DNA of 26,992 nt from a virus (taxonomy: Duplodnaviria > Heunggongvirae > Uroviricota > Caudoviricetes), in IMG/VR virus record IMGVR_UViG_2778261667_000015; one strand, written 5' to 3'. The notes beneath the pieces are model-generated. The model saw only the letters and a list, made by a program, of their open reading frames with translations, searched no databases and was not told where the DNA came from. The translations under genes were made by a program, and so were the position numbers. Of the stretch, positions 1 to 18,854 are shown piece by piece. Numbering within the stretch: position 1 is the stretch's first letter; the number at the start of each line of letters is the position of its first letter.

Positions 1-948
1 GCCATCATCCGGCATCACCACATTACTGCGGTTATAGGTCCACACCTTATCCGACGGTCGGTCCTGCACGAACGTCAGCGTCTGCCCGTTCCATACCGGC
101 ATACAGCGCATCGCCGAGCAGAAATCACTGAGAACATCCCACGCCTTACGCTGTGTGGTCAGCCAGGCATTACAGGAAATGCGCGGCTCCGTGCCACCAA
201 AACCGTCCGGCACCGACTGGTCGCAATTCTGGCCGATGACATACAGCGCCCATTTGTCCACATCCGCCGCACCAAGACGTTTACCCATGCCGTAGCGCGG
301 GTGGGTCAGCATATCCCACAGACACCAGGCCATGTTGTTGCTGTATGCTGGCTTAAACGTTCCGTCCCAGATACCGCTGTATTGCCGCGTCTGCGGGTTA
401 TAGTTCGACGGCACCTGCAGAATGCGCCCGCGAAGATGATAATTACGGCTCACCTGCTGGCTGCCGAACTGTTCCGAGTCCACCTGCACGCCGACCAGTG
501 CCGTGTTCGGGTAGCACTGTTTCACATCGATGATTTCGGTGTATGACGACCAGAGCGTTTTGTTCTGCAGCTGGTCTGTGGTGCTGTCCGGTGTCATCCT
601 GCGCATCCGGATATTAAACGGGCGCGGCGGCAGGTTATCCACCACCACCGAGGCCAGATACTGCGACGTGGTTTTGCCCTTAATGGTGATGTCTTTTTCC
701 GTCACCCAGCCACCGTTACGCTGTATCTGAACCAGCAGACGGACTTCCGACGGATTCCTGTCACCCTTTGAGGTGGTTTCCACCAGTGCCTGTACACCGA
801 AGGTAAAGCGCAGACGGTCGATGTTTGCCGACGTAATGGTGCGGGTGATCGGCGTGTCATATTTCACTTCCGTACCCAGCACCGTCTCGGAACCGGAGGA
901 TTCAAATCCCTCCGGCGGTGACTGCTCCTGCTCGCCTGCCCAATACAT
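1..948 (-). CDS. Tail tip host-specificity protein J-like, 5'-truncated internal fragment that runs off the window start
   Basis: Minus-strand translation is open from ~957 down to position 1 and reads ...AGEQEQSPPEGFESSGSETVLGTEVKYDTPITRTITSANIDRLRFTFG...YSGIWDGTFKPAYSNNMAWCLWDMLTHPRYGMGKRLG..., which I recognise as the N-terminal third of lambda gpJ starting near J residue ~70. In-frame TAA at 958-960 lies immediately upstream; first in-frame ATG at 946-948. No stop inside the window, hence absent from the ORF track. Confidence 0.7.
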   Translation of the reverse strand, partial: MYWAGEQEQSPPEGFESSGSETVLGTEVKYDTPITRTITSANIDRLRFTFGVQALVETTSKGDRNPSEVRLLVQIQRNGGWVTEKDITIKGKTTSQYLASVVVDNLPPRPFNIRMRRMTPDSTTDQLQNKTLWSSYTEIIDVKQCYPNTALVGVQVDSEQFGSQQVSRNYHLRGRILQVPSNYNPQTRQYSGIWDGTFKPAYSNNMAWCLWDMLTHPRYGMGKRLGAADVDKWALYVIGQNCDQSVPDGFGGTEPRISCNAWLTTQRKAWDVLSDFCSAMRCMPVWNGQTLTFVQDRPSDKVWTYNRSNVVMPDDG

Positions 949-1472
949 GCCATTGCCTTAACGGCTGGCGTCACCTGATCAGCAAATCCATGTGCCAGAC
1001 ATTCGGCACCGGACATCCAGGTCTCATCCGCCAGCATGGCAGCAATTTCATCGGTGGTTTTCCCGGTTTTCTGTGCATAAGCGGGTAACAGAACCGCCTC
1101 AACCTTATCGAGCAGGTCGGCATAGGTGCGCATGTCCTCCGCATCACCGCCCGTAAAGCCAAATGGTTTATGAATCATCATGAAGGTGTTTTCCGGCATA
1201 ATGACCGGGTTTCCCACCATCGCAATGACCGACGCCATTGACGCCGCCACACCGTCGACATAAACGGTAATGGACGCACCATGTGTTTTCAGCGCATTAA
1301 AAATGGCGATGCCTTCAAAGACATCGCCACCCGGTGAATTGATATGGAGATTAATGTGGGTGATATCGCCCAGTGCATTCAGATCACTGATAAACTGCTT
1401 CGCTGTAACACCCCAGAAACCAATCTCGTCATAAATATAAATATCCGCGTCACTCTGGTGACCAGCCTGCAT
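864..1472 (-). CDS. ClpP/S49-like prohead maturation protease (gpC-like), C-terminally truncated; its reading frame runs out-of-frame into J-derived sequence
   Basis: ORF 864..1733; internal ATG at 1472 (MQAGHQSDADIYIYDEIGFWGV...) lies 14 nt past the portal stop. Protease-like motifs INSPGGDV and MAS..IAMVG; the last ~30 residues (MACIGQASRSSHRRRDLNPPVPRRCWVRK) are a +1-frame read of J-like DNA. Confidence 0.65.
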   Translation of the reverse strand: MQAGHQSDADIYIYDEIGFWGVTAKQFISDLNALGDITHINLHINSPGGDVFEGIAIFNALKTHGASITVYVDGVAASMASVIAMVGNPVIMPENTFMMIHKPFGFTGGDAEDMRTYADLLDKVEAVLLPAYAQKTGKTTDEIAAMLADETWMSGAECLAHGFADQVTPAVKAMACIGQASRSSHRRRDLNPPVPRRCWVRK

Positions 1473-1485
1473 CCTGAACCAGGAA

Positions 1486-2994
1486 TTATTCTTCGGACTG
1501 GTCGTCGGTGTGCTGCGGCTCCTGTCGTTTCGTTGCGGCACTGCTGCCTCCTTTATCACTGGCCGGATCGGTATCAAATACCAGATCCAGCTTGCGGTTT
1601 TCATCAATTTCGGCCTTGCGCCGACGTTTGACATCATCCGGATTACGACCACCAGCACGTACCCAGTCTGATTCTGTCGCCGCTCCACCACGAATCTGGA
1701 TTTTCCAGGCCTCAGCCTCCTTAACAGGGTCAATCCACGGCATCACTGGTCCGGAATACACCGCGGTATACAGTGAAGAACGGTCAAGATCACGGGGTAG
1801 CCTGATAACACCGGATGCCACAGCCTGTTTCAGCCAGGCACGATACATCGGGCGGGTGACGGCACCAATAAACCAGTCCTGCAGGATCAGGTAGCCATCA
1901 GTAGACTCAACCAGTTCCTGACGCTGGGCGCTGTAAGTGCCGTTATAGTTGCGTGCCGTACTGGAAAAACTCAGACGACTGCCCGCCGCCACGGCACGCA
2001 ACTGACCATTACGAAAAGTTTCAAGGTTAGGATTGGGACGATCCGACTTCACCATTCCGATTTCTTCGCCGGGTTTCAGATCGTCGTAAATAATGCCTGG
2101 CTGAATGGTAAGCTCGCGTTCCTTATCCTTGCTGCCATTACCATCCGGTTCATAGCTCTGCCCGTCGCCTTTCCGGATGTACATCCCCAGAGCAGCGGCG
2201 ATCCTTGCTGCAGTCAGCTCAGAATCTTCATACTCTTTCAGGGCACTGAGGCGGATCAGCACACCGGACAACAAAGACGTCCCGCGCATCTGGTGCAGAC
2301 GGCGAACAAATTTAAGATGCAGCATTCGCTCTGCATCCACTTCTTTGGTTTCCATCTGCCGTCCGGATACAGGACGACTTTTATACACCAGATATTTTTC
2401 GGGACGCCCCCAGTCATCAACAAACACGCCCTGATTCAGCCTGTTGCTCTCATCACTGGTCATGGGAATAAAGTCTGGCTCGAGCGCCTCCAGCCAGAAA
2501 TGAACACCGGCAGAAGGCGTCAGGCTGTTTATGCGCCCGGAAACCATCTGGGCAAACACCTCACCATCGCGCAGCCAGGTACGCAGCATCAGACGTTCCA
2601 GCATCGGACGGGTAAACTGCCCGGTGACTTCCGGGCTGACAGACCATTCACTCCATCGGGTGCGTATCTCCGCTGCCAGATCACGGGCAATGGCCCCATT
2701 GCGTAATACCGGATGTGGCTCGACAATAATCCCGTTTTTCCCCACCACCCGTTCTTCCAGCTTGTCAAATACACCAATAACCAGATCGTGGTTGTTATCA
2801 AGGTAACGGGCCTGCTCACGTAACGACACGGCCCCGTACTGGCTTAACTGGTCGGCAGTTCGGTTTTCCCGCCGGGCTTTGTGTGTCCGCGTCGTTTTTA
2901 CGGCCTCATAAGCCTGGATCACCGCACGGGAACGCAGCCTTGCCGCTTTCCATCCTGGTGAAAAAACGCCAATCACATCATCAAGAATTGCCAT
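1486..2994 (-). CDS. Phage portal protein (gpB-like)
   Basis: ORF 1486..3066 (526 aa) in the position expected between gpW and the protease. The ATG at 2994 overlaps the gpW stop (TGATG), suggesting a coupled 502-aa product; the upstream start at 3066 is the alternative. Confidence 0.8.
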   Translation of the reverse strand: MAILDDVIGVFSPGWKAARLRSRAVIQAYEAVKTTRTHKARRENRTADQLSQYGAVSLREQARYLDNNHDLVIGVFDKLEERVVGKNGIIVEPHPVLRNGAIARDLAAEIRTRWSEWSVSPEVTGQFTRPMLERLMLRTWLRDGEVFAQMVSGRINSLTPSAGVHFWLEALEPDFIPMTSDESNRLNQGVFVDDWGRPEKYLVYKSRPVSGRQMETKEVDAERMLHLKFVRRLHQMRGTSLLSGVLIRLSALKEYEDSELTAARIAAALGMYIRKGDGQSYEPDGNGSKDKERELTIQPGIIYDDLKPGEEIGMVKSDRPNPNLETFRNGQLRAVAAGSRLSFSSTARNYNGTYSAQRQELVESTDGYLILQDWFIGAVTRPMYRAWLKQAVASGVIRLPRDLDRSSLYTAVYSGPVMPWIDPVKEAEAWKIQIRGGAATESDWVRAGGRNPDDVKRRRKAEIDENRKLDLVFDTDPASDKGGSSAATKRQEPQHTDDQSEE

Positions 2995-3206
2995 CAGAAC
3001 CTCGCCAGCCGGTACCCGGGATGCCCCCGTCGTCGTGTAATCAGAGCCGCAAGGCGGCGCTCCCACTCCTGCCGTCCCTGCCGGATCTCAGATAAGTTTT
3101 CCATGGTCATCTGCTGACCATTAAAGGTGACGGATTTTCCGTCCAGCACCGCCATTTCAGCTTCCGTATAACGCTGAATCATGGCTTCGATATCATTCTG
3201 GTTCAT
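2994..3206 (-). CDS. Head-tail joining / head completion protein gpW-like
   Basis: 70-72 aa ORF between terminase and portal; C-terminal ...RRRGHPGY resembles lambda gpW ...RRRGPAGF. ATG at 3206 overlaps the terminase TGA (ATGA) and has GGAGG 6 nt upstream. Confidence 0.6.
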   Translation of the reverse strand: MNQNDIEAMIQRYTEAEMAVLDGKSVTFNGQQMTMENLSEIRQGRQEWERRLAALITRRRGHPGYRLARF

Positions 3207-5302
3207 AACCATCCTCCGGAAGTCAGCCAGGGGTTAACATCGTCAGTTACTGTTTTCTTCCGTTTTTGTTTTTTAACAGGCGTGGATACCGGTTCCGGTG
3301 AGGGTGACGGTTCGGTACTGTCCGGGACACACTCCAGCCAGGTTTCCCGGCTCGCCCATTCCGGTGCATCCGGCCAGCGGATCTTTTCGTATCCATGCAG
3401 AATGACCAGAGCCTCGGCATACACCATCAGGTCAAAGGCTTCGTTGGCACCGCGACCCGGCTTACTCCATTTCCCGTCACTGCTCCGCTCTTCATACGTC
3501 AGTTCGTCGTAAAACCAGCTCCCCAGCCAGTCAGGGAAATGCACATAGCCGGGACCTGGCGAGTCACGCCATAACGCGTTATTCACCCGGTCTTTCAGTG
3601 CATCCGTCTGAAGAAGCCAGAGCGGCACATCACCTGCGGCCTGCGCCCGTCGGCCCGTTCGTCCGGTGTTATCAGGGAATGTACGGGTGATCAGTTTTGC
3701 GCGCCGGATGCTGTCGCCCTTAAACAGGTAAATACGTTTACCAAGGCCATCACGACGGCAACGACGCCAGAATTTATAGGCATTATCAGTGACCCCGTCT
3801 TCACCGCCGGAGTCCACCGCCATTGCCATCAGTCGCATTTGTTGAGAAGGATCGGAGGCCAGCGGCCAGCTTTTATGAAAAACATCCGTCAGCAGGACAT
3901 CCCAGTCTTCCGGATAGCTGGCCGGATCAATTCGCTGGCTCTCCCCGTCGCAGTCACTGCGCAATGACTGCGTGATATTGTAACGATCAATAATCCAGCG
4001 TTCGCCACGACTGCCATAGCCCGTTACCTGAACCACAAAACGGCGATGACGTCCCGCCTGCACATCCACTGTCGCCACAAGGAAATTAACGCCATCCGGC
4101 ACACTGCGGGAAGGAACTGGCTCTGCCCGCTGCTCAAGCAGTTCACTTTTTCGTTGCTCCATGCTGGCACGAGGAAGATAAGGCAATCCCCAGTCGGTGT
4201 TGATAACCGCCCTGAGTGTTTCTTCGCTTCCTGTCGCTTCATACTCCTGTTCTGCAGTCAGTAATTTGTAAACCAGTTGCGCCCAGGTCTGATACGCAGC
4301 AGCTGGCCCTTCCATCCAGAAACTGGCGATACGGGAGCGGCGCGGTTCACCGGAAACGTTGCCGTTACGATCAATGACCTGACCTTCACGCAACCAGACT
4401 CCTGCACTATTGAGCTCACGCTTTTTCTCCGCAGTGATAATGCCGCTGCAGTGCGGGCAAAGTAGATACGCCGCCTCACTGGCTTTAAAGGGATCCGGTT
4501 CATTACGGTAGCCGGTCATGGCATCCATAGCTGGCTGAAAATATTCACCGCAGTGCGGACATGGCCAGTACCAGCGGCGGCGGTCACCACGATTGTAAAG
4601 GGAAAGAATACCAGTCGTCGGTGGCGCTTCATGAGGCGACTTACGTCGCCATTTGCTGTCGCAGATGTCACGTCCCGGCGAGCTCTCCACCAGAGTCATC
4701 CCGGCGGACATAAATGTGGTGGTACGTTTTGAGGCCAAGGAGAAACCATCACCCTCGCTGTCGATATTCTCCGGAAAACGGTCGTAATCGGTTAAGGCGA
4801 CAAACCGGTAATCCGACGACGACATAATGTTGACCGAGGGCCAACCAATTTTAAGGAACGAGCCATCCCTGAACGTCTTATCATGGACATTATTGTCGTT
4901 ACGACGTGGACTCATTCTTTTCTTTACCGCCGCACTGCTTCTGAACGTTCTGTCGAGGCGCTTTTTAGAATGCTCGCGGGCCTTATCTTCGGTCATCTGC
5001 ACAACGAGCATGTCCGAAGGATCGCAAACGATGGTATAGACAATCCATCCATCGATCAGACCAATGGTCTTCCCTGTTCGCGCAGGACCAACAAAAATCA
5101 CCGCATCGTATTCACGCGATGCCAGGCAGTTCATGGGCTCAATGATGTAGGGTGTCAGTTCAGGATCCCATGGCACCGAGTTACCAGCCCCCTTGGGAAC
5201 ACGCATGAATTTTTTAACAGCCTCCGAAATCGGCATGCGACGTGGTGGGGAAAATCCTGCCGATATGTCCCTTCCCAAATTTCGGGCTGATGAAAAACCC
5301 AT
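3203..5302 (-). CDS. Terminase large subunit (gpA family)
   Basis: 699-aa ORF with a Walker-A-like VGPARTGKT and overall lambda gpA-like layout; strong SD (GGAGG) before the ATG at 5302; follows the small-subunit gene. Confidence 0.9.
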   Translation of the reverse strand: MGFSSARNLGRDISAGFSPPRRMPISEAVKKFMRVPKGAGNSVPWDPELTPYIIEPMNCLASREYDAVIFVGPARTGKTIGLIDGWIVYTIVCDPSDMLVVQMTEDKAREHSKKRLDRTFRSSAAVKKRMSPRRNDNNVHDKTFRDGSFLKIGWPSVNIMSSSDYRFVALTDYDRFPENIDSEGDGFSLASKRTTTFMSAGMTLVESSPGRDICDSKWRRKSPHEAPPTTGILSLYNRGDRRRWYWPCPHCGEYFQPAMDAMTGYRNEPDPFKASEAAYLLCPHCSGIITAEKKRELNSAGVWLREGQVIDRNGNVSGEPRRSRIASFWMEGPAAAYQTWAQLVYKLLTAEQEYEATGSEETLRAVINTDWGLPYLPRASMEQRKSELLEQRAEPVPSRSVPDGVNFLVATVDVQAGRHRRFVVQVTGYGSRGERWIIDRYNITQSLRSDCDGESQRIDPASYPEDWDVLLTDVFHKSWPLASDPSQQMRLMAMAVDSGGEDGVTDNAYKFWRRCRRDGLGKRIYLFKGDSIRRAKLITRTFPDNTGRTGRRAQAAGDVPLWLLQTDALKDRVNNALWRDSPGPGYVHFPDWLGSWFYDELTYEERSSDGKWSKPGRGANEAFDLMVYAEALVILHGYEKIRWPDAPEWASRETWLECVPDSTEPSPSPEPVSTPVKKQKRKKTVTDDVNPWLTSGGWL

Positions 5303-5310
5303 TATTCCTC

Positions 5311-5838
5311 CTAGAGACTCTCTCCTTCCTCATCAGGAATTAATTCAGCAGCACAAGCCTCGTAGGATTTTTCCTGAAGAGTGTATCGCAGGTCATCAAT
5401 GGCCTGCTGTACAACGCCGACGGCCTGAGGAGTCAGGGCGCAATCGCGTTCAAGAACATCCGGAATTGTCTCCAGAACCTGGACGACAGCCTTTCTCATG
5501 GACGAATAGACGATGACTACTTCATCAACTGGGATGAGTTTTCGCTGCTCCTTTTCCAGCTTGATCCTTTCATTTTCAGACTGGTACCAGTCCTTTCTCT
5601 CTTTCGGCTCCATACGGGATGGATCATGAACAGAGTCTGCTGCCTCATGCTTCACACTAAACAGGGCGGGCCCGACATGCTGCAGGGCGTAAACGGGGTT
5701 CCCCCTGACAGTCGCAGCCACAGGAGTGTTGGCCGCGAGGAGCCGTTTTTTTACTGTGTCCCGGTGAAGCCCAAAGGCCTCGGCGATTTTAAAAACACTC
5801 CAGTAATAAGCATCACCGATCCCGCTCACATTTGACAT
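5311..5838 (-). CDS. nohA: Terminase small subunit (Nu1-like)
   Basis: ORF 5311..5850, directly upstream of the large subunit. GGAG sits 6 nt before the second ATG (5838), so that start is preferred. Symbol by synteny with K-12 Qin nohA, not by alignment. Confidence 0.7.
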   Translation of the reverse strand: MSNVSGIGDAYYWSVFKIAEAFGLHRDTVKKRLLAANTPVAATVRGNPVYALQHVGPALFSVKHEAADSVHDPSRMEPKERKDWYQSENERIKLEKEQRKLIPVDEVVIVYSSMRKAVVQVLETIPDVLERDCALTPQAVGVVQQAIDDLRYTLQEKSYEACAAELIPDEEGESL

Positions 5839-5959
5839 AAGCAACTCCATCTGGCAGGTGAAAATCAGGTTTATTTATATATTTCAATTAATTGCAAACT
5901 GGTCTAATGACAGGAAGAAAAAAATATTGTACAGGTGAAAAGAGAAATAACTTTTAATT

Positions 5960-6080
5960 ATCAATAAATTACCAAACATGCTGCCGCCGCCATGGAAATG
6001 CAAAAACTAGCCTTTTTCCGCGACGCTCCCGCCCCGTGGCAGGGGCCCCCACCGGGAGGACCCGACAGCCTGACAGCCGT
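5960..6080. other. Putative cos / terminase recognition region
   Basis: Non-coding stretch immediately upstream of Nu1, unusually GC-rich for the locus (gctgccgccgccatgg ... ccgccccgtggcaggggcccccaccgggagg). Position matches where lambdoid cosN/cosB lie; exact nick site not determinable by eye. Confidence 0.25.
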
Positions 6081-6395
6081 GACGAGCATCTGATACAGCG
6101 CTTTACATAATGGCATAGGAATAATTCAGAAGGACATCACAGCATGCCCACACAAATTAGTGTGAGTGTCCTGTTTCTTCCTACGCACAGGACTGACGAG
6201 CATGAGGGGAAAATACGCGAACCATAAATGCCTCATCTTCAGCAATGCAGCCGAACAGGACGATATTGTAAATTCACCTAATTACGAGGACATTGCAGTA
6301 GTTGAATTGCAGCTCTGTATTAGCCTGACAGTGACAGAATGCGATATTGACTCTGTCACAGGTGAAATAGTTTGAATGATTAGCAGTTATGGTGC

Positions 6396-6602
6396 TCAGT
6401 CAACCACCAGGGAATAATCCTTCGAATTCTTATCGTGCTTCACCAACGCTGCCTCAATTGCCCTGAATGCTTCCAGAGACACCTGATGTTCTATACATGC
6501 AATTACAACATCCGGGTAACTCATAGAAATGGTGCTATTAAGCATATTTTTTACACGAATCAGATCCAACGAGAGTTCATCAGCAGATTGTTCTTTATTC
6601 AT
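6396..6602 (-). CDS. Hypothetical small protein (68 aa)
   Basis: ORF with ATG at 6602 and GGAG 8 nt upstream; no family recognised. Confidence 0.4.
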
Positions 6603-6902
6603 TTTGTCGCTCCATGCGTTTGCTCGTCATCTAGCGGTTAAAATATTACTTCAAATCTTTCTGCATAAAAGAGGAAAAGTATGAAAGTTTGAGTACATCG
6701 ACCTTACATACATCTGTCGGTTGCATATCCCTCCTGGATGCCAGCAAGGCTCAACTTTGTTACGCAACCAACACTATTTATTGAAAACAGGCTTAATATT
6801 TGACATAAATCATCAACAAAACACAAAGAGGTCAGACCAGATTGAAACAATAAACACGATAATGCAAACTACGCGTCATCGTATCACATGGAAGGTTTAC
6901 CA

Positions 6903-7313
6903 ATGGCTCAGGCTGCCATTTTTAAAGAAATATTCGCTCAAGTGCGTAAAGATTTAAACTGTGAATTATTTTATTCTGAGCTAAAACGTCACAATGTCTC
7001 ACTTTATATTTACTATTTAGCCACAGATAATATTCACATTGTGTTAGAAAACGACAACATAGTGTTAGTAAAAGGACTCAAAAAGGTTGTAAATGTTAAA
7101 TTCTCCAGAAACAAACATCTTATAGAGACCTCCTATAATAAGTTGAAATCAAAAGAAATCACATTTCAACAATACAGGGAAAATCTTGCTAAAGCAGGAG
7201 TTTTCCGATGGGTTACAAATATCCATGAACACCAAAGATATTACTATACCTTTGATAACTCATTACTATTTACTGAAAGCATCCAGAAAACTACACAAAT
7301 CTTACCACGCTAA
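6903..7313 (+). CDS. ydfO: DUF1398-family protein YdfO-like
   Basis: ORF 6888..7313; ATG at 6903 preceded by GGAAGG at 7 nt; sequence [19 protein letters not shown]...[14 protein letters not shown]... matches my recollection of K-12 YdfO. Confidence 0.65.
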
Positions 7314-7464
7314 ACCATAACGTCCGGCTTCTCTCACTCCTGAGCCGGACTGCATTGGTTTAATAAAAACCATCAACAATTGTGATTTAGATATTCGGAA
7401 CCATTCAAATATAACAAAACCCCGTAAAAACGAGGTTTATGGATAAATTTTATTATTGAATACA

Positions 7465-7638
7465 TCAGATTAAATTAATCTTGACATCATAGCTTTCAAG
7501 ACCCGTCATTTTTTCCCGTGCGGTAAACTGAATACTGGTAACTTCTTTCCCGGTCTTTTTCTTAAGTTCAATAATTTTTTTTGTTATATATTCAGAAATA
7601 TCTGCTTCTGCTTTTGTTTTTAAGTCTTCAATATTCAT
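7465..7638 (-). CDS. gnsB: GnsB-like small protein (57 aa)
   Basis: Below the ORF-track size cut-off; manual translation gives MNIEDLKTKAEADISEYITKKIIELKKKTGKEVTSIQFTAREKMTGLESYDVKINLI, closely resembling GnsA/GnsB; GAGGA 5 nt upstream of the ATG. Confidence 0.75.
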   Translation of the reverse strand: MNIEDLKTKAEADISEYITKKIIELKKKTGKEVTSIQFTAREKMTGLESYDVKINLI

Positions 7639-7810
7639 CATTTCCTCTTTTAGTCTGTTATGACTTTCCAGTTACACTGGTAAGTCGATTATATGGTGCA
7701 AACGTGTAAAAGATAAGATGAAACATCGCAATAATCAACATACGATAGTCTAAATTTTACACAAACAGACAAAGAGAATTTTTCTGAATTATCAATGCAA
7801 TAGCATCAAA

Positions 7811-7966
7811 TCAACTCAAGAGCCTTATTGCTGCTTCCAGAATTTCTTCTGAAGTAACATGCCGATCCGCGGCTACATAAATGACTTTATGATCTCCGGT
7901 CAGAGATGGAAACCCTGCGGCCATTACAGTAAGGTGTGTTTTTTCGCCATTTGGATATTCACGCAT
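7811..7966 (-). CDS. ynfN: YnfN-like small protein (51 aa)
   Basis: ORF 7811..8002; internal ATG at 7966 yields 51 aa (MREYPNGEKTHLTV...), the length and position of Qin ynfN between gnsB and cspI. Confidence 0.5.
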   Translation of the reverse strand: MREYPNGEKTHLTVMAAGFPSLTGDHKVIYVAADRHVTSEEILEAAIRLLS

Positions 7967-8313
7967 GATGGTGTTAACTCCAGTCATCGCTGGCACTACC
8001 ACTGCTGGTTCAGAGTTAAAAAAAACTATGATTTTTTTTCATGATGTTACCGTAGTATGTGAGTATCCATCGAATAGACACCAAGCAAAAAAGCTCCCGA
8101 AGGAGCCTTCATTTTCACTTTTTTAAATCCAACGACAGACGGCTGGCATTTAAGTATTGTGAAATATTATCAAATGTAATCATCATTGATTTACAAAAGA
8201 TACATTTTGCCCCGAAAGGATTCATGTCAGAAACATCAAAAGATGATGTTCTATACTGGGAACCATGACAACACGGGCATCTAAAGTGAATATGGTTTGT
8301 AATATTGTCTACC

Positions 8314-8526
8314 TCAAAGCGCCACTACATGAACAGCGGCAGGACCTTTAGGTCCGTTCTCAATACCAAATTCAACTTCCTGATTCTCAGTTAATGTTTT
8401 GAAATCGTTGCTCTGAATTGCTGAGAAATGGACAAACACATCTTTGCTGCCATCTTTCGGCGTGATGAAACCAAAACCTTTTTCAGGGTTAAACCATTTC
8501 ACTAAACCAGTCATTTTGTTAGACAT
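8314..8526 (-). CDS. cspI: Cold-shock protein, CspA family
   Basis: 70 aa [70 protein letters not shown] with RNP1/RNP2 motifs; position next to Rz as in Qin. Confidence 0.85.
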
Positions 8527-8888
8527 AATTATTACCTTTTGAAGAAATTAGCCCTTGGGCAGAATGGTCCGAAAAAAAATATCAGAGAGAAAAACCAACA
8601 AGGAAATCTCAAGAGGTACAAATAATAAAATTATAACAATGACTGCTTCAGATAAATTTGTAACAAACCAGAACACCATTAACGCATGATTAACCACCCA
8701 TAGCAAGGATTACTTTTGTAAAGAAAAACACAGCAATGAAAGAATAGCTTTATTTATTAATAAAACGTGTCATTCTGATTAAGACCTTTTATCTTACCCT
8801 TAAGATTTCAGGAATTTTGACTCATGGAAGAGTCCTTTTTATTTAAATTTTACATTCAGCGATGTAAATGTTCCGATTTAATATTACC

Positions 8889-9912
<1,024 letters not shown>

Positions 9913-9916
<4 letters not shown>

Positions 9917-10224
9917 ATATATTTATGATGAGGACGCTCGTGCTTATTGGCAGGATTTTCAATCTTAAAGGAGTACTGATGCTGCAGATAAGACTCAACT
10001 TTTTCTGACAATTTTTCTGCTACTTCCAGGAAGACTTGCCGGACGCTCCTTCTGGCTGCTGCCTCATAAAACTCCAGCGCAGCTCCTTCAACACGGTCCA
10101 TGGCGACATCCAGGTCAAAAATTTCACCGTCAAAGCGTTCTTTGTCCTGTAAGGCTACAGTTACCGTAACTTTATTCTCAAAATTACGGACTCCTTTCAC
10201 AACCAGTTCATAGTCTTGAGTCAT
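9913..10224 (-). CDS. ydfR: YdfR-like (DUF1327) protein
   Basis: 103-aa ORF between holin and endolysin, same size and position as Qin ydfR; stop overlaps the lysozyme start (ATGA). Confidence 0.6.
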
Positions 10225-10228
10225 TGGA

Positions 10229-10444
10229 TTACTCTCCTCTCGCAGCCTTACGCCTGTCTTCTTTAATCTTGAAATAAAGATTTGTCAGATACGTCAGCAG
10301 GCCAAAAACCAGGCTACCCAGCACACCGATTGCAGCCCACTGTGACGGAGTTACTTTATCGAGTAACTGCAATGCCCAGAAACCAGCATTACCCGCCGAT
10401 GTGCCATAGGCAACACCTGTTGTTAACTTATCCATTGATTTCAT
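10229..10444 (-). CDS. essQ: Class II holin, S21-like pinholin
   Basis: ORF 10229..10519; internal ATG at 10444 gives 71 aa [71 protein letters not shown] with a dual-start motif (M1/M4) and two TM segments, closely matching phage 21 S. Confidence 0.8.
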
Positions 10445-10663
10445 ATCCTCACCCCGATGTACACGGATGGTGCAATATGTTTGAAAAGATCGGAGTCTAC
10501 GGGGTAGTTTTGACAGCACACGTTGTTCTCAACGGCGCTAAAAAAACATACACATTAAAAATGTGGGTAATTATTTTGAAAGAAAGTCATATATAAAATA
10601 ATAATACGAGAAATGTTTTCATATTTAGTGTACTGTATACGGCCATTTATACAGGAAAAGCCT

Positions 10664-10834
10664 ATGTCAGAACGTAAAGACTCAAAATCACGCCGTAATT
10701 ATCTCGTTAAATGTTCCTGCCCAAACTGCACCCAAGAGTCAGAACACAGTTTTTCAAGAGTACAAAAAGGTGCCCTTTTGATCTGCCCTCATTGCAACAA
10801 AGTATTCCAGACAAATCTTAAAGCTGTAGCCTGA
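10664..10834 (+). CDS. ynfU: Small zinc-ribbon protein (CPNC...CPHC)
   Basis: ORF 10613..10834; ATG at 10664 with AGGA upstream gives 56 aa with two CxxC pairs. Symbol is a tentative recollection of a Qin small Zn-binding protein. Confidence 0.45.
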   Translation: MSERKDSKSRRNYLVKCSCPNCTQESEHSFSRVQKGALLICPHCNKVFQTNLKAVA

Positions 10835-10891
10835 TTGATTTTATTAGTAACAAGTATTTTTTATATTTTAATAATATATTTAAAGCAGATA

Positions 10892-10917
10892 ATAAAAAAC
10901 CCGCCTGAGCGGGTTTG
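10892..10917 (-). terminator. Rho-independent terminator hairpin, probably bidirectional
   Basis: aaacccgc-ctga-gcgggttt stem-loop flanked by an A-run on the plus strand, i.e. a T-run on the minus strand; lies downstream of cspB. Confidence 0.5.
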
Positions 10918-11197
10918 AGATTGTGGTGCTTTTTGTGGGAGTCATCCACTTACGCACTTTGTTTTGCGATGCCAGCAGTTAGCTTCTGCTGTGAAACTAT
11001 TCATGCAGCAAACCTGCACTTCACCACAATGGTTAGCATACTTTTCCTGATTAAGATTTTGCCAAATATGCTGGCCATTGTTTCATGTATTGGACCTCCT
11101 TACTTTTTATTAAAGAGATCCAATATTCACTACTCTGTCCGTATCTCTACTCAGGCATCAGCCTTCTTCGTTATCGTATACAGACGAGCGATGAATT

Positions 11198-11413
11198 TTA
11201 ATCAGTAATGATGACATTTACTGCTGCAGGACCTTTAGCACCACTCTCTATAGAGAAGGTAACCTTTTGACCTTCAAATAAGGTTCGATAATTATCATTC
11301 TGAATCGCAGAAAAATGCACAAACACATCTTTACTACCATCAACAGGAGAAATAAAGCCGAAACCTTTATCAGCGTTAAACCATTTTACTAAACCAGTCA
11401 TTTTATTTGACAT
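11198..11413 (-). CDS. cspB: Cold-shock protein, CspA family
   Basis: 71 aa [71 protein letters not shown]. Confidence 0.85.
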
Positions 11414-11713
11414 TCTACATTCCTTAACTTGAGCCTTTCGGCATAAATGGTTTGTATAACAGAAACGACTTCGTACTTAATTGGAGAGACTCAAAGAAGG
11501 AATAAGTGAATAACACCTGAAATGAGAACTGCTTTAGTAAACTACTTCGTATATCGTCTGTTCTTCAAACCGACGCAATCATTAACGCATAGTTGAACAT
11601 ATGAAGCAATGTTTATTTTAGACATCCAGCCATCTTCAACCCCATCAAAAAACTATAGCTTTCTTCAGGAACGTGTGTATAGTGCGCCAAGTTATCAGTA
11701 TTAAGGAATTTTT

Positions 11714-11926
11714 TTGTCCCGTAAAATGACAGGAATTGTCAAAACCTTTGACGGCAAAAGCGGCAAGGGTCTTATCACCCCATCCGATGGTCGTATCGAT
11801 GTCCAGCTTCATGTTTCAGCGCTCAATCTCCGCGATGCAGAAGAAATTACCACCGGATTACGCGTGGAATTTTGCCGGATAAATGGTCTGCGTGGCCCTT
11901 CAGCTGCCAATGTTTACCTTTCATGA
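11714..11926 (+). CDS. cspF: Divergent CspA-family protein
   Basis: 70 aa [39 protein letters not shown]...; starts at TTG 11714 with AAGGA 6 nt upstream (ATG alternative at 11726); divergent from cspB as in Qin. Confidence 0.75.
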
Positions 11927-11980
11927 GCTATATTAAAGCTTTAATTTCAGGCCCCATCGGATCACACATGGAGAGTTTTT

Positions 11981-12070
11981 ATGAATAACCCCGTCTGTCT
12001 TGATGACTGGTTGATTGGCTTTAAAAGCTTATGCTGTACTTTGGCCGTAATAGCTCTGCTAATAATATAA
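11981..12070 (+). CDS. Candidate 29-aa small hydrophobic protein
   Basis: Manual [32 protein letters not shown] with GGAG 7-8 nt upstream; short polar N-terminus and hydrophobic C-terminus like small membrane peptides. Unverified. Confidence 0.25.
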
Positions 12071-12218
12071 TAAGCAGACTCATTGTGTTTAGGGACATTG
12101 TACTGGAAGAAAACATTTTAAACATCAGGCAAATAACCAAGTCACCAGCTAAATAATAAGTTAACAGACATGAGTCCCGGGATGAGATTCAACATTACCA
12201 TTGCCCCATTTAAAGCAC

Positions 12219-12250
12219 AAAACCCGCTCATCAGCGGGTTTTCTACTTTT
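12219..12250 (+). terminator. Rho-independent terminator
   Basis: cccgc-tcatca-gcggg stem followed by a TTTT run; downstream of cspF. Confidence 0.5.
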
Positions 12251-12347
12251 TCTTAACGTCGGGTATACAAAGCCCATCGTTGAAAAAATTTTATCCATAT
12301 TTTTTGAAAAATGCAAGCATCACGTTACCATCTTCATTGAAAAACCT

Positions 12348-12410
12348 TTATCGTGTTACTTTTATCAATTGCACTTCAGCATAGAGTTATCCCAGACAGC
12401 ACTTTAAAGA
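12348..12410 (-). pseudogene. Diverged relic of an antiterminator Q gene 3' end
   Basis: Minus-strand translation of 12348-12386 gives ...YAEVQLIKVTR-stop, against the intact Q C-terminus ...AYAEVQLRKVTR-stop at 14042; the flanking DNA aligns at roughly 75% identity with 14042-14110. Confidence 0.5.
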
Positions 12411-12695
12411 CTTCTACATTACACACACCTTGTCTCCCCTTCTCGTCATATCTGCAAGACCGATATGCATGACGCAGTACATACGCTGAACTGCTTTATC
12501 CATCTGCATATTCTAGTGCTAAAGCGACTTCAGTAGCAGAAGCAAAATTCTGCTACTGTGCCAAACAGGAGTAAACGTCATTTTATGTAATGTTGATTGA
12601 GTGGTCATAGTATCACCTCAATAACAACTCTCCGCCCTATCATTGAAAGCATATCTGCTATAATTAAAAAGCCACTTAACATCAGGACTTCAAAC

Positions 12696-12881
12696 ATGAC
12701 TTCAAATCAATCTGAAAACGAAATAGTTAATACTGTCAAAAAATATGCATCATGTGCTGACGATGCTTTGCAGGGAGGCAAAGAAAACGTTAAAGATAAA
12801 TTTAGAAATTATCCACTGACTAGCGTGGTGGTTGCTCTAAGCATAGGGTTAACGCTTGGTTTTATTATTGGCAGAAAATAA
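12696..12881 (+). CDS. DUF883 (ElaB/YqjD/YgaM)-like C-tail-anchored small protein
   Basis: ORF 12597..12881; from ATG 12696 it gives 61 aa ending ...FRNYPLTSVVVALSIGLTLGFIIGRK, the characteristic DUF883 C-terminal anchor. Confidence 0.5.
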   Translation: MTSNQSENEIVNTVKKYASCADDALQGGKENVKDKFRNYPLTSVVVALSIGLTLGFIIGRK

Positions 12882-12939
12882 TCTTAAGCCTCCCATAAGT
12901 CGTACACAATCACATCTGCCAATTAATGTTCCATTAGTA

Positions 12940-12965
12940 AAAAACCACCTCCTGTGGAGGTGGTT
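12940..12965 (-). terminator. Rho-independent terminator, probably bidirectional
   Basis: ccacctcc-tgt-ggaggtgg stem with AAAAAA on the plus-strand 5' side (T-run on the minus strand); 53 nt downstream of the 39-aa minus ORF and 60 nt downstream of the plus-strand DUF883 gene. Confidence 0.5.
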
Positions 12966-13017
12966 TAAGGATAGCAACAAAACACAACCTACTTTAAACG
13001 GCTATATTCTGCTATAT

Positions 13018-13137
13018 CTAAATAATAGGATCTCTTTTATCATCCGGTGAAAAAGGGTTCAATGGTTGCCCCTCATCAGGACGCTCAACGGGCTCATCAT
13101 CAGGCTTACGGTCATCAAAATCTGGATGTTCTGACAT
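13018..13137 (-). CDS. Candidate 39-aa acidic, proline-rich small protein
   Basis: Codon-by-codon manual translation: MSEHPDFDDRKPDDEPVERPDEGQPLNPFSPDDKRDPII; GGGTGGA SD-like sequence upstream; terminator follows. Confidence 0.3.
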   Translation of the reverse strand: MSEHPDFDDRKPDDEPVERPDEGQPLNPFSPDDKRDPII

Positions 13138-13172
13138 ATTCCACCCTAGTATTTTTATGCAGGAAAGATTAT

Positions 13173-13280
13173 TTACTCTTTCCGGTTGTCTTTTTTATTA
13201 TCCTTACCCTTACTATCCTCATTGTTTTTATTCCTGTCATGAGATTTTTCATTTGAATCACTTACATATAATGTATTCAT
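13173..13280 (-). CDS. Candidate 35-aa highly charged, lysine-rich small protein
   Basis: Manual translation MNTLYVSDSNEKSHDRNKNNEDSKGKDNKKDNRKE; GGAG 7 nt upstream of the ATG; a perfect TATAAT sits ~45 nt further upstream on the same strand. Confidence 0.3.
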   Translation of the reverse strand: MNTLYVSDSNEKSHDRNKNNEDSKGKDNKKDNRKE

Positions 13281-13314
13281 GGGGACTCCAGTTTTTTAAC
13301 AGCACAATGCTGTA

Positions 13315-13360
13315 TCTGTAATTATAGATGCAATTAATCATTATGATATGTATGTTTCAT
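13315..13360 (-). promoter_or_regulatory. Putative sigma70 promoter for the small-ORF pair
   Basis: Minus strand reads ...attaattgcatcTATAATtacag...; the -35 is weak or undefined. Confidence 0.25.
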
Positions 13361-14041
13361 GCACAAATCAGAAACGCATCTAGTGCTTTAATTAATATGG
13401 ATTTTATTGCTGTAGATTTACAAAAATTTTCATAATTAACCAGCAATATAAGACAAATATCTCATAACATGAGGAAAATCAAGCTCATTTAAAGCAATTT
13501 ATAATTTTCATCCTACTGTTTTCCCTGCACTGCCAACACAAGTTTCATCGCAACACTCTGACAAGACACCTATAAAATCAGTTTCGTTATCACCTTAATT
13601 TTCTTCATGGGTAACAAACCGGTAATACATCGATAGCCAGATTTCCGGCGTAAGCCATTTATTTGCAGCCTGATTGATGCGCGTTACTGTTACCTCTTCC
13701 CTGCATCAGGATGGCTTCTCCAGATGATATGGTTAATCACACTGGAACATTCACGCATAACCGTTTCCTTCATATCCTGCCGTTTTAGCATGTCTTTTCC
13801 CCTTCTTGTTAATATCAATAACTAACACAAATCTAAAAAAGCCAGCAATGTAAAAAAACTGCATTCACGGCAACCATAATGGTTACCGTTCTGCACAAAG
13901 TTTATGTCCACAAAAAAACCACTCTGCGCGGCTTATTGATATTTTCCACAGGTATGCATATAAGGCTCATCATTGGAAAACTCTTTGCACGTTTCCTTAG
14001 AAAATACAATCGTTATGTCGCCATCGTTCGGTGAAAATCAT

Positions 14042-14794
14042 TTATCTCGTCACTTTTCTTAATTGCACCTCAGCATATGCTTCTTCCTGCCAGCACTTTG
14101 TAACCAGTTTATCAATGACATCTGCATATCCTTTGTACCACTGATAATCCGTCAGGTCTGGTACCAGCTTCTGGACATGACACCGCGCCAGTGTCGTTGG
14201 TAAACGACTAAACCGGTTTCCATTGCAACGCCCACAAACCTTATAAACAGGCGTGCTATGAAGCCGGGTTCTTTTTTCATCCAGGACAATACCTTTCCCC
14301 TTACACCCTCTGCACGCTGTGCTGACTTCTCCCTTACCATGGCAATGCTGACATAGTTCCTTCACCCACTCTTCCTTGATAACAGATTCCCCACTTCTGG
14401 AGTGTTTCACCACTTCGCGCAATACATTATGAAATCCAGTACCAGCACAATACTCACAGCGAGCCTTACTTGCCGCAGACCTGGAATAATCAGCAAAGGC
14501 AAAATTCACAAGGTAAGGGATGATCTGTAACCGGATTTCTTCACTCAATTTGTTCAATGTCGGATTATCCATTGCCATCGCGTAATTGAGCAGACCTTCA
14601 ATCGCAAACTGAGGATCCTGAACACCAACTTTTGCCAGGAATAAGGCAAAACCAAGCGGAGCTTTCGACTGCACCATCCCCTGCGCAGCCATCACATCTG
14701 TTATTGTTAAACCACCCGAGCCTGTCGCCGGTGCGTCATCACTCAATTTTGGAGATTTTGGGGAGTAATATTTTGGTAAAGCTTCAAGGTTCAT
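14042..14794 (-). CDS. quuQ: Late-gene antitermination protein Q
   Basis: 250 aa with multiple CxxC zinc-binding motifs (CEYCAGTG, CQHCHGKG, CRGCKGKG, CGRCNG) typical of Q antiterminators; ATG at 14794. Confidence 0.85.
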   Translation of the reverse strand: MNLEALPKYYSPKSPKLSDDAPATGSGGLTITDVMAAQGMVQSKAPLGFALFLAKVGVQDPQFAIEGLLNYAMAMDNPTLNKLSEEIRLQIIPYLVNFAFADYSRSAASKARCEYCAGTGFHNVLREVVKHSRSGESVIKEEWVKELCQHCHGKGEVSTACRGCKGKGIVLDEKRTRLHSTPVYKVCGRCNGNRFSRLPTTLARCHVQKLVPDLTDYQWYKGYADVIDKLVTKCWQEEAYAEVQLRKVTR

Positions 14795-14807
14795 GCTCGT
14801 TCTCCAC

Positions 14808-15857
14808 TTACGCCAGTACGCCTATTGCCAGCGCACGATCGATAAAACGAAATATCAGCTCCAGCTGGGAGCCATACTTCTCTTCAAATGCCACGGTATT
14901 CGCATGCAGCTCGTCGTGATGCTTTCTGCACAAAGGCAACACAAAGAGATCATGTGCTTTGGTTCCCATTCCGCCCTGCCCGTGACCAATCAGATGATGC
15001 GGATCGTCGGCTGGCATACCGCAGCAAGCACACGGCTGTGTCTTAACCCAGCGTGTGTACTTTTCATTAACCCAACGGTGACGTTTAGGCAGCTTCATGA
15101 AAGATTCCGGAGACTCTGGATCAACGGTGATGCTTACCACCGTCTTTTCCTGTGATGGGTTTTGTTGCTGGTGGGCGTGAGGCAACGGTGCAAGATTTTT
15201 TGTGCGCTGTTTCAATATGCTGGTGGCGGTCTGCTCTCCCGGTACGATGTCGCTTTCGCGGTACACCGAGCAGTTTTTTTCCGCTGGTAATCCCAGCGAG
15301 CGACGTAATACCGCTTCCGGTAGCGCGTCCGCCACCTGATTGCGGACCGCCCACCAGGATAATTCAGCCAGAGATAATTCACGCTCCTGCGTACCGCTTA
15401 TTGCGTGACCGATGACGTCAATCATCCATGCTGACAGGTTTTGATGAGCAAGTTGCTCGAGTGATTCGGATGTCTGGTCACGCAGCTGGTTGTCGCAGTG
15501 CCAGCACAACACCATTGCGCCGGTACCATAACGGTGAATAACGGTTTCGCTGTGATGATAATCGCCGTGTGGCCACTGGCAGGATTTAATATGGCGCAAC
15601 AGCCAGTCAGACAATGCACCAGCACCACCAGCAGCACGAATTACCCGTGCGTTACTGAAAAACGGCAGCAATGTTTTGTCTTCCACCAGCGGCTGGCGAA
15701 CGGCAGGAACGACCCCGGACGGCAGATTACGCATGCTTTTCGGTTCCGGCTCCACCAGTACCCGGGTATTGTGGAATACCGGCATGGATTCACGGCCCGG
15801 CTTAACGACCACCAGCCCGAGTTCCGGTACCAGAACAGGTCGAAGTAATACCCGCAC
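14808..15857 (-). CDS. ydfU: YdfU-like (DUF968) protein
   Basis: 349-aa ORF; GTG start at 15857 preceded by GGAGG at 4 nt and coupled to the upstream ORF stop; Cys/His-rich C-terminus (CACCGMPADDPHH...CRKHHDELH). Confidence 0.7.
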   Translation of the reverse strand: MRVLLRPVLVPELGLVVVKPGRESMPVFHNTRVLVEPEPKSMRNLPSGVVPAVRQPLVEDKTLLPFFSNARVIRAAGGAGALSDWLLRHIKSCQWPHGDYHHSETVIHRYGTGAMVLCWHCDNQLRDQTSESLEQLAHQNLSAWMIDVIGHAISGTQERELSLAELSWWAVRNQVADALPEAVLRRSLGLPAEKNCSVYRESDIVPGEQTATSILKQRTKNLAPLPHAHQQQNPSQEKTVVSITVDPESPESFMKLPKRHRWVNEKYTRWVKTQPCACCGMPADDPHHLIGHGQGGMGTKAHDLFVLPLCRKHHDELHANTVAFEEKYGSQLELIFRFIDRALAIGVLA

Positions 15858-15858
15858 G

Positions 15859-16137
15859 TTACCTCCAGATGCGTTGCTGGAATGTACGGGACGGACGCGG
15901 TGGGCGTTCGGAGTAAGGCAATCTGACTGAGATTATCCAGTGACGGTAGTCGAGACTAAGGGCTTTCTTAACCTCGTATCCGCGCCTGCGGTAACACTGA
16001 ATTATCCATTCAGCCTGCTCTTCAGTGCATGGAGGGTGCTGGAACCATTCAGACTTGAATGCGTGAGAATACCGCTCGTGCGTGCAGGCAAGAACGGGCG
16101 AATTATCAGAATTGTAATATTTTACGTTGCGTGCCAT
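15859..16137 (-). CDS. Hypothetical 92-aa protein coupled to ydfU
   Basis: ATG at 16137 with GGAG 7 nt upstream; its stop lies inside the ydfU SD; no family recognised. Confidence 0.45.
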   Translation of the reverse strand: MARNVKYYNSDNSPVLACTHERYSHAFKSEWFQHPPCTEEQAEWIIQCYRRRGYEVKKALSLDYRHWIISVRLPYSERPPRPSRTFQQRIWR

Positions 16138-16203
16138 CGGTTTTCTCCGGTGGCACGGTGTTACTCAGCGGGAGTTCAGCCCCGCGCAAGATTGTAGATG
16201 AGT

Positions 16204-16455
16204 TTATTCTTCTGCAAAAGCTGAAAAGCCTGCTTTTATTCCGATCTCTTTCAGTGCCTGTAATGAAGTGACAAACTCACCTTCGCGCAAGATAAATCCG
16301 TCTGTCACTCGACCATCCACAAAATTAATTAACGCAGCCCCATTCTTTCGCAAACACATAATGCGGTAATGACTAACAAGATTTCCATTTTCAACGCACA
16401 CAGCATAGAGGCCATCTTCACAAAAAATTTTACGCAGTTCTTCGATGTTCATCAT
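16204..16455 (-). CDS. rem: Rem-like small protein (83 aa)
   Basis: 83-aa ORF (MMNIEELRKIFCEDG...) with GGAAGG upstream; size and position next to hok as for Qin rem. Confidence 0.5.
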   Translation of the reverse strand: MMNIEELRKIFCEDGLYAVCVENGNLVSHYRIMCLRKNGAALINFVDGRVTDGFILREGEFVTSLQALKEIGIKAGFSAFAEE

Positions 16456-16570
16456 CAGAATCCTTCCGGATAATTAGCTCTCCCCTTTAAGGGACCATCC
16501 CTCTTATCCCTGCGCGCTACTTAAGTATTTTTGATTCTATTCCGGCACCGTCCAGAACTTCAAACGCGTT

Positions 16571-16604
16571 GAAAATAAAAACAAAAACCCGCCGAAGCGG
16601 GTTA
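16571..16604 (-). terminator. Rho-independent terminator of the hok transcript
   Basis: Minus strand reads cccgc-ttcg-gcggg followed by TTTTTGTTTTTATTTT. Confidence 0.6.
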
Positions 16605-16671
16605 AGTGCGGGTGCGTTGAGGATGCCTGCCACATCAGAGGTGGCGAGGGATTTCTCCCTCGCCGGGTCTC

Positions 16672-16827
16672 TTACTCCTCAGGTTCGTAAGCTGTGAAGA
16701 CAGCGACCTCCGTCTGGCCGGTTCGGATTCGTACCTCGCAGAGGTCTTTCCTCGTTACCAGTGCCGTCACTATGACGGTTAAACAAATGACGATCAGGGC
16801 GATTAACATCGCCTTTTGCTGCTTCAT
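16672..16827 (-). CDS. hokD: Hok-family type I toxin (51 aa); the overlapping mok frame extends to 16884
   Basis: MKQQKAMLIALIVICLTVIVTALVTRKDLCEVRIRTGQTEVAVFTAYEPEE is a canonical Hok; the 70-aa ORF 16672..16884 is the mok-like upstream frame. Confidence 0.85.
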   Translation of the reverse strand: MKQQKAMLIALIVICLTVIVTALVTRKDLCEVRIRTGQTEVAVFTAYEPEE

Positions 16828-16859
16828 AGCCTGCTTCTCCTTGCCTTTCGGCACGTAAG

Positions 16860-16935
16860 AGGCTAACCTACATGTGTCTAGCATGAAATTGGCCTCAGAT
16901 TAATGTTAAGCGTCTTGCAGGACGCGTAATGTTAA
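16860..16935 (+). ncRNA. sok: Putative Sok antisense RNA region
   Basis: Placed antisense to the mok start/leader by analogy with plasmid R1 hok/sok; boundaries not resolved by eye. Confidence 0.25.
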
Positions 16936-17324
16936 CTGGGGCTTTTCTCTATCTGCCGTTGGTGTTCATGCCCGAGGCAGATAGCCTCAAGCACCCGCAG
17001 CCATTCTACTTAACTACCGTTACCTCGCCAATATGAAATCAATCAGTAAGGTGATCCATAAGAACAATAACAAGACAATAAATTGCCATTACAGCCACAA
17101 TAGCCAGCGTGCATTTGAGAACCAGCACATAAATCTCCTGCTCTTGACGTATACAGGCACTGATAAATATGTGTCTTCGTGCTCGTTACTTCAATACGTA
17201 AGCGTCAGTTGCGCGTAATCAAATCAGACAACCGACTTTAAACCAGGGACAAACAGCAGGTAAAATAATCAAACGTTATTTTAAGCCATATCATGGCTTC
17301 AAGATTTCCTCTAATTTCAACAAG

Positions 17325-18814: not shown

Positions 18815-18854
18815 AAGTCCTCCTTAAAATTACCTCATGACCTGAAATCAACAT

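Follow-up and report, generated by a model that had tools for sequence, protein, structure and literature searches.

The locus described here raises the question of whether a prophage that runs straight from a head protease gene into the tail tip gene J has lost the intervening DNA in a real, inherited event, and if so, by what route and with what effect on the element. The window, that is, the whole stretch of 26,992 nucleotides of IMG/VR record IMGVR_UViG_2778261667_000015, was initially read from its letters alone. The original prediction placed a deletion junction at 864-1000, fusing the head protease gene out of frame to the middle of J, in a lambdoid prophage that kept its terminase, portal, gpW, lysis, Q and int/xis genes.

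A gap of 10,268 bp between positions 941 and 942

The window was compared with two intact prophages, its closest relative in STEC299 (NZ_CP022279.1; L002) and, as a second intact reference, that of UTI89 (L001). At this end of the window, all genes are on the minus strand. BLAST alignments assign positions 1-941 to gene J (6001-6941 of the STEC299 prophage, 98.5% identity; 8792-9732 of the UTI89 prophage, 96.6% identity) and positions 942-3200 to the portal and head-protease region (20001-22259 of the UTI89 prophage, 99.2% identity). On this second side the alignment with STEC299 covers 942-16210 (17210-32478, 99.6% identity) and continues over 16205-26992 (34432-45220, 99.3% identity), with the break near 16205-16210 caused by an IS100 that STEC299 carries and the window does not. 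Positions 6942-17209 of the STEC299 prophage have no counterpart in the window.

The missing DNA amounts to exactly 10,268 bp against both intact prophages, and the breakpoints are identical whichever of the two is used for mapping. Base by base, the J-side match is perfect through 941 and the protease-side match is perfect from 942. The bases next to the join mismatch on both sides, with an overlap of 0 nt and 0 inserted or filler bases. Genes are cut at both edges of the gap and no inserted element lies at the junction. The deletion junction originally predicted is confirmed by these alignments, which place it exactly between 941 and 942. It is a discrete structural feature and involves no statistical signal, so chance is not at issue. 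The features at the junction are as follows.

941..942, no strand: deletion junction, with J sequence ending at 941 and the side of the protease/capsid fusion gene starting at 942
864..1541, minus strand: chimeric ORF of 225 aa, with a GTG start at 1541 and a stop at 866-864
1..941, minus strand: gene J (tail tip attachment protein) lacking its 5' end, with codon 69 (from its second base) through codon 382 present
946..948, minus strand: the J-frame ORF's first ATG, taken straight from the sequence
864..867, minus strand: GTGA, where a J-frame GTG (867-865) and the TGA that ends the chimeric ORF overlap

The chimeric protease ORF

Since 10,268 bp is not divisible by three, the reading frame shifts across the junction. 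The ORF-finder listing gives the protease frame as 1733..864 on the minus strand, with a translation that resembles ClpP-like proteases. Its probable start is the GTG at 1541, which has a strong ribosome-binding site (AAGGAGG) 6 nt upstream. Bases 1541-942 correspond to codons 1-200 of a 675-codon gene that encodes a fusion of a ClpP-like prohead protease and the major capsid protein. Bases 941-867 then add 25 out-of-frame codons from J DNA, GQASRSSHRRRDLNPPVPRRCWVRK, before the stop at 866-864, just as an out-of-frame fusion had been foreseen. The C-terminal 475 codons of the fusion gene are lost. The upstream gene had been taken for a head protease equivalent to lambda gene C; the protease assignment holds, but the gene belongs to the ClpP-like protease/major-capsid fusion type and is itself truncated.

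Pfam detects a complete CLP_protease domain (PF00574) at residues 30-191 of the chimeric ORF (2.9e-37), and the GVAASMA and MIHKP motifs, described as catalytic, are kept. The intact STEC299 fusion protein carries the same domain at 31-191, followed by an HK97-type Phage_capsid_4 domain (PF25209) at 377-672. This capsid domain was not found by Pfam in the 225-aa chimeric ORF, which covers positions 3-192 of the 668 of phrog_133. Judged by these matches, the ORF is a fragment of the phrog_133 protease/capsid fusion family and not a full member.

The truncated gene J

J codons 1-68 are deleted, and J is kept from the second base of codon 69, in agreement with the estimate that J-like sequence began near residue ~70. 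The description of this point as the middle of J was not borne out. J comprises 1131 codons in intact relatives, which makes the breakpoint N-terminal, and the window ends inside the gene at codon 382. On the minus strand, the J-like frame from about 948 to base 1 reads MYWAGEQEQSPPEGFESSGSETVLGTEVKYDTPITRT..., and Pfam recognizes in it an FNIII-A_GpJ domain (from J residue 86) and the first part of Phage-tail_3. As far as the sequence reaches, the domains after FNIII-A are kept as well. A sister contig, L003, extends further, with a J frame that runs uninterrupted over 805 codons to the contig end at about J residue 871.

Two start codons are available to the truncated J (J'). The in-frame ATG pointed out at 946-948 is present in the sequence. 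It sits in protease-side DNA read in the other frame, two codons upstream of the junction. The ORF to which it belongs begins behind a TAA at 960-958, and 7 nt ahead of the ATG there is a weak Shine-Dalgarno-like AAGG. If used, this ATG would give M-Y-W followed by J residues 70-1131. The second start is the GTG at 867-865, which is the one chosen by the gene caller on L003 (genes 9293-9970 and 9967-12300). No terminator-like site was found on the minus strand from 1541 to 1, which makes the suggested co-transcription of J' plausible. Both stumps lie within what would be the Q-dependent late transcript and may be made, presumably with no role in virion assembly.

Genes lost and genes retained

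According to the annotation of intact relatives, the lost block comprises the rest of the fusion gene, a DUF2190 protein (Pfam Phage_cement_2), the head-completion genes, the tail tube, the G/T chaperones and the tape measure. Between the tape measure and J, it also includes four genes annotated as phage tail protein, minor tail protein L, C40 peptidase and tail assembly protein. The absence of the genes between protease and J, already noticed in the window, is in this way documented gene by gene. The major capsid, tail tube, tape measure and tip genes are essential for virion formation. From what is established about lambda morphogenesis, an element that lacks their products would not form virions by itself.

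By comparison with STEC299, the rest of the element is preserved. All 36 of the other STEC299 prophage proteins align full length to the window, at 92-100% identity, and apart from the deletion no lesion was seen in the genes compared. The packaging and portal genes next to the chimeric ORF are the following.

1489..2994, minus strand: portal gene, 502 aa, intact and 100% identical to STEC299
2997..3206, minus strand: gpW-like head-tail adaptor, phrog_118, 70 aa, intact
3206..5302, minus strand: terminase large subunit, 699 aa, intact
5314..5838, minus strand: terminase small subunit, DUF1441, phrog_141, 175 aa, intact

Also full length against STEC299 are the holin, ydfR, lysozyme and Rz genes, Q (ydfT), ydfU and hokD, as well as queH, the O-like gene, ydaT, dicC/dicA/dicB, exonuclease, xis and int. 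The statement that terminase, portal, gpW, lysis genes, Q and int/xis are intact is well supported by this comparison. Rfam identifies DicF and sok (at gathering scores) and two cspA-type 5' leaders in the window, in which no tRNA genes were found.

A Qin-family prophage

The lambdoid nature of the element had been recognized correctly and can now be specified. On the basis of gene content, it is a Qin-family lambdoid prophage of E. coli, collinear with K-12 Qin in five blocks at 93-99.5% identity (BLAST against NC_000913.3). Positions 6825-26992 of the window align in order with the Qin prophage of K-12 MG1655 (NC_000913.3 1632277-1652745). The shared blocks include ydfO-gnsB-cspI-rzpQ-rrrQ-ydfR-essQ-cspB-cspF, ydfT(Q)-ydfU-hokD, dicC-dicA-ydfA, and DicF-dicB-ydfD up to the integrase, with the last base of the window corresponding to the end of the intQ pseudogene of K-12. 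On the int side, the window ends at the int stop codon, and its other edge lies inside J, so that it includes no chromosomal flank. In the nearest relatives (STEC299, SCU-115 and K-12), rspB adjoins int.

The head-tail morphogenesis block is absent from both K-12 Qin and the window. In the K-12 gene map, no annotated gene lies between nohA (small terminase) and stfQ, whereas both terminase subunits, gpW, portal, the protease domain and most of J are still present in the window. The window also has an intact exonuclease, xis and int, while the int of K-12 Qin is disrupted by IS2. In the central region, the window carries queH, DUF977, an O-like gene and ydaT where K-12 Qin has relBE and flxA.

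Intact and viable relatives show the arrangement from which the window departs. Outside the deletion, the STEC299 prophage is 99.3-99.6% identical to the window (J side 98.5%), but it has the full head-completion and tail set, in addition to its IS100. The viable phages mEp460, cdtI phage, phi458 and Tritos are 99.4-99.7% identical to window 942-1300. In these phages, as in STEC299, the full 675-aa fusion gene is present, with J elsewhere in the record. On this evidence, the window carries the head module of mEp460/cdtI/phi458/Tritos-type phages. A candidate identification as a PICI or satellite-like element was rejected, as the element matches an ordinary Qin-type lambdoid prophage in gene order and identity, apart from the one block it lacks.

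Furthermore, an independent deletion of the morphogenesis block is found in SCU-115 (NZ_CP054368.1), in a Qin-type prophage at the ydfJ/rspB site. When its junction was mapped, portal homology stopped at the position matching window 1673. At that point the portal gene joins, in frame, the C-terminal end of a StfQ-like tail fibre, and the 632-aa hybrid product bears the annotation 'portal protein'. Judged by these alignments, the window represents a third, smaller deletion of the block that is missing in K-12 Qin and SCU-115, and the endpoints differ.

Origin of the join

The search for microhomology at the junction, proposed with the original prediction, gave a negative result (0 nt). Within 30 nt, the two ends have a single 6-mer in common; it is out of register, and chance alone would supply 0.7. 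Neither nearby repeats nor Chi sites at the breakpoints rose above chance. A single Chi-like octamer lies ~700 bp from the protease-side breakpoint, in DNA kept by the window.

Several routes of recombination were considered. Deletion mediated by an IS or by a site-specific recombinase was rejected, as the join consists of J and protease DNA only, with no extra bases. Homologous recombination between prophage paralogues was also rejected, given that the protease and J segments have no similarity. The short direct repeat expected at the breakpoints of a microhomology-mediated deletion (A-EJ or slipped mispairing) is not seen. Ku/LigD NHEJ is absent in E. coli, and A-EJ (RecBCD, LigA) is described as strongly dependent on microhomology (PMC11297215). 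Only 43% of the small deletions in bacterial pseudogenes occur between microhomologies (PMC6054270), and a junction without microhomology is therefore not unusual. The deletion probably arose through illegitimate end joining of a double-strand break, or through a replication or topoisomerase error. Homologous, site-specific and IS-mediated recombination would not have been the route.

A different origin would be a larger rearrangement, an inversion or a deletion between two lambdoid prophages, in which the J fragment came from another element and the loss was not simply that of an internal 10.3 kb. This is very unlikely. It could accommodate the lower identity of the J side to STEC299 (98.5%, against 99.6% for the rest of the window), the ending of the window in J, which places the far side outside it, and the contig break at 862, by which the carriers appear to hold another J copy. 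However, over 593-941 (the 349 bases adjoining the junction) the J of the window and that of the Qin-type STEC299 prophage are 100% identical, and the J of the unrelated UTI89 prophage has 15 mismatches there. The mismatches with STEC299 are confined to 163-592, as is typical of mosaic J genes, and the identity of the J allele at 593-941 supports the internal deletion of one element. In addition, order and orientation are exactly those of a simple internal deletion. Rearrangements between prophages normally proceed through long homologies, whereas no homology lies at this join. From the allele identity we infer that J' continues into the tail-fibre genes of its own prophage and the ydfJ flank, as expected for an internal deletion. 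In K-12 and SCU-115, this side of the prophage carries the tail-fibre genes stf and tfa, then pinQ, ydfK and ydfJ.

Rarity of the junction allele

The junction was searched for in several collections. By megablast with window 600-1300, it was found in none of 5,426 complete E. coli genomes, where no place covered at least 80% of the query. The two halves of this query occur in thousands of complete E. coli genomes, but never contiguously. The adjacency is also absent from 50,697 phage records, and the junction gave no match in GTDB species representatives (two scans) or in JGI metagenomes. An intact phage sharing this gene adjacency, which the original prediction had named as evidence against itself, was not encountered, and no complete E. 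coli genome shares it either. In terms of frequency, the exact 225-aa chimeric protein, present in a public protein collection, is encoded on 6 contigs, against 2,239 collection blocks with an identical large terminase. One of the contigs reported for the protein is 301 kb long. When loci with the identical large terminase were sampled, six of six had the intact 675-aa fusion gene and tail genes, within the limits of the locus ends. The absence from complete genomes and phage records indicates that the junction allele is, as far as its distribution tells, rare, derived and recent. The identity of its flanks to the STEC299 prophage (99.3-99.6%) likewise points to a recent event.

It could be proposed that the arrangement is functional and selected, either as a helper-dependent packaged element or as a domesticated protease domain or truncated J directed against superinfecting phages. 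The complete CLP_protease domain with its catalytic motifs and strong ribosome-binding site would fit this proposal, as would the usable start codons of J' and the intact terminase, portal, int, xis, replication and lysis genes. There is also a precedent in the defective prophages Sp1-Sp18 of O157 Sakai, which are lambdoid and carry many functional-looking genes, like the element in the window. Defective lambdoid prophages of O157 can be induced, packaged in trans and transferred (PMC2669165). For Sp1-Sp18, induction, packaging and transfer were tested experimentally (Asadulghani et al. 2009). Nevertheless, a selected arrangement is extremely unlikely. At 99.3-99.6% identity, a young deletion without selection would leave the other genes equally intact, so that their preservation is accounted for by the age of the event and near-identity to an intact relative, and selection is not needed. 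The allele is rare, the fusion breaks the frame and adds 25 random residues, and there is no sign of convergence on endpoints, as those of K-12 and SCU-115 differ.

More specifically, the freed ClpP-like protease, J' or both might act as dominant-negative poisons of assembly in mEp460-type lambdoid phages, whether superinfecting or co-resident, or the element might be packaged by a helper; the chance of this is very small. If true, the protease domain would have been freed from the scaffold/capsid part that normally confines it in the procapsid, with J' placed after it in the late operon. Helper packaging, if true, would involve a helper prophage with the same head module and an element of ~36 kb (a rough estimate). 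The reading of the allele as a recent internal deletion is preferred.

Recurrence in independent assemblies

The exact junction sequence recurs in five other records, namely one NCBI assembly, three SRA-run assemblies and one IMG/VR provirus. Among the 6 contigs encoding the exact chimeric protein, 4 were compared at length with the window, and the 36-nt junction sequence was exact in all four. They differ from the window by 11 SNPs in GCA_002965265.1 (PTSO01000097.1) and by 3, 0 and 1 SNPs in the Logan assemblies of SRR11484454, SRR3988014 and SRR3988104, respectively. The junction is also present in the IMG/VR provirus UViG_2802429245_000004, which matches window 465-3265 without a difference. 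The junction-bearing records all appear to be drafts, with 0 closed genomes among them. All three Logan contigs break off a short way into J, at window 862, a sign that those genomes may contain a second J paralogue.

A chimeric contig or library artefact, in which the head region of one prophage was joined to the J repeat of another, has next to no chance of being the explanation. In its favour, J is multi-copy in E. coli (with this query, up to 12 places in a genome, median 2), three Logan contigs end at 862 as if a second J copy existed, and no closed genome has the junction. However, the two sides share no sequence at the join, which leaves a graph assembler without a repeat for mis-joining and means that the junction k-mers must exist in the reads. 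Four data sets assembled independently of each other and an IMG/VR provirus contain the 36-mer, in haplotypes 0-11 SNPs apart; random chimeras would not turn up repeatedly. This leaves practically no room for mis-assembly. The possibility that reads would expose the junction as an assembly artefact, raised at the outset, was countered by this recurrence in independent read sets.

Prophage decay in the Qin family

The junction is real and inherited, and it is a case of ordinary prophage decay. The arrangement very probably goes back to one deletion event in a Qin-family lambdoid prophage of E. coli, which removed 10,268 bp fairly recently and without the help of homology. The event would have produced a frameshifted stump with the whole protease domain, followed by a 5'-truncated J. 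Probably unable to build its own capsids or tails, the prophage would be locked in the chromosome. Its persistence is probably due to a neutral or host-favourable loss of lytic morphogenesis genes. It has been described that incomplete prophages preferentially lose lytic and structural genes (PMC7744054).

The finding poses no challenge to current understanding, and its value is mainly one of annotation and bookkeeping. In annotations, the 225-aa ORF should be marked as a protease/capsid fusion gene fragment with a frameshift, and the ORF downstream of it as a J that lacks its 5' end. The element, listed in IMG/VR as a viral contig, should be recorded as a defective Qin-type prophage and no intact phage. 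For the Qin prophage family, the window provides a clean, datable intermediate of decay. K-12 Qin, SCU-115 and the window are three members of the family, presumably at the same locus, that lack the morphogenesis block, each with different endpoints, which fits published trends.

Possibly mosaic J sequence and a probable further J copy

The J gene of the window differs unevenly from that of the intact Qin-type prophage of E. coli STEC299, with all 14 mismatches lying within 163-592 and none within 593-941. On the J side, the sister contig carrying the same junction (GCA_002965265.1) departs from the window at positions 592, 635, 638, 667 and 721. J has the look of a mosaic or recombination-prone gene, or of one partly collapsed in draft assemblies. 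Furthermore, three independent Logan contigs with the junction (L004, L005 and L006) share a common end at window position 862, 80 nt beyond the junction. Such a common end implies that the assembly graph branches there, and hence that the carrier genomes hold at least one additional J paralogue, belonging to another lambdoid prophage.

An independent portal hybrid in E. coli SCU-115

The Qin-type prophage, and probably its chromosomal site too, is common to the window and E. coli SCU-115, and the SCU-115 deletion is independent. Its portal homology stops at the position corresponding to window 1673, where the C-terminus of a StfQ-like tail fibre is joined in frame to the portal part. RefSeq labels the product simply as 'phage portal protein'.

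Hybrid gene in SCU-115
L014 (NZ_CP054368.1) 5424-7322, minus strand: portal::StfQ-like hybrid gene, 632 aa

Cargo and differences from related Qin prophages

Four RNA elements scored above the Rfam gathering score. The two cspA-type leaders, sok and DicF are cargo typical of Qin.

RNA elements in the window
8287-8672, minus strand: cspA-type thermoregulator leader, upstream of cspI
11151-11574, minus strand: cspA-type thermoregulator leader, upstream of cspB
16822-16996, minus strand: sok antitoxin RNA, adjoining hokD
22186-22237, plus strand: DicF sRNA

Two segments set the window apart from K-12 Qin. The first (12406-14000, around 1.6 kb, from cspF/ynfS to the Q gene ydfT) has no K-12 Qin counterpart and contains short ORFs only, with no tRNA; the annotation of its STEC299 equivalent is largely blank, with a 61-aa hypothetical gene as the sole entry. 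The second (16842-20042) gave no megablast match to K-12 Qin, and carries queH (epoxyqueuosine reductase), a DUF977 gene, an O-like replication gene and ydaT, whereas K-12 Qin has relE, relB, ydfV, flxA, ydfW and ydfX in that place.

STEC299 harbours an IS100 (istA/istB) at the site equivalent to window 16205-16210 (L002, the STEC299 prophage, 32473-32478 and 34432-34437), which is uninterrupted in the window. The two window/STEC299 alignments overlap by 6 bp around the IS100, suggesting a target duplication.

Element ends and catalogue records

The integrase stop codon forms the exact last bases of the window (26992), corresponding to the end of K-12 intQ. The fetched stretch of a 24,415-nt IMG/VR provirus contig is 100% identical to window 465-3265, and, judging from this alignment, the contig appears to begin at window 465. 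With both the window and this provirus on record in IMG/VR, this defective element has therefore been entered as a virus in viral-contig catalogues.
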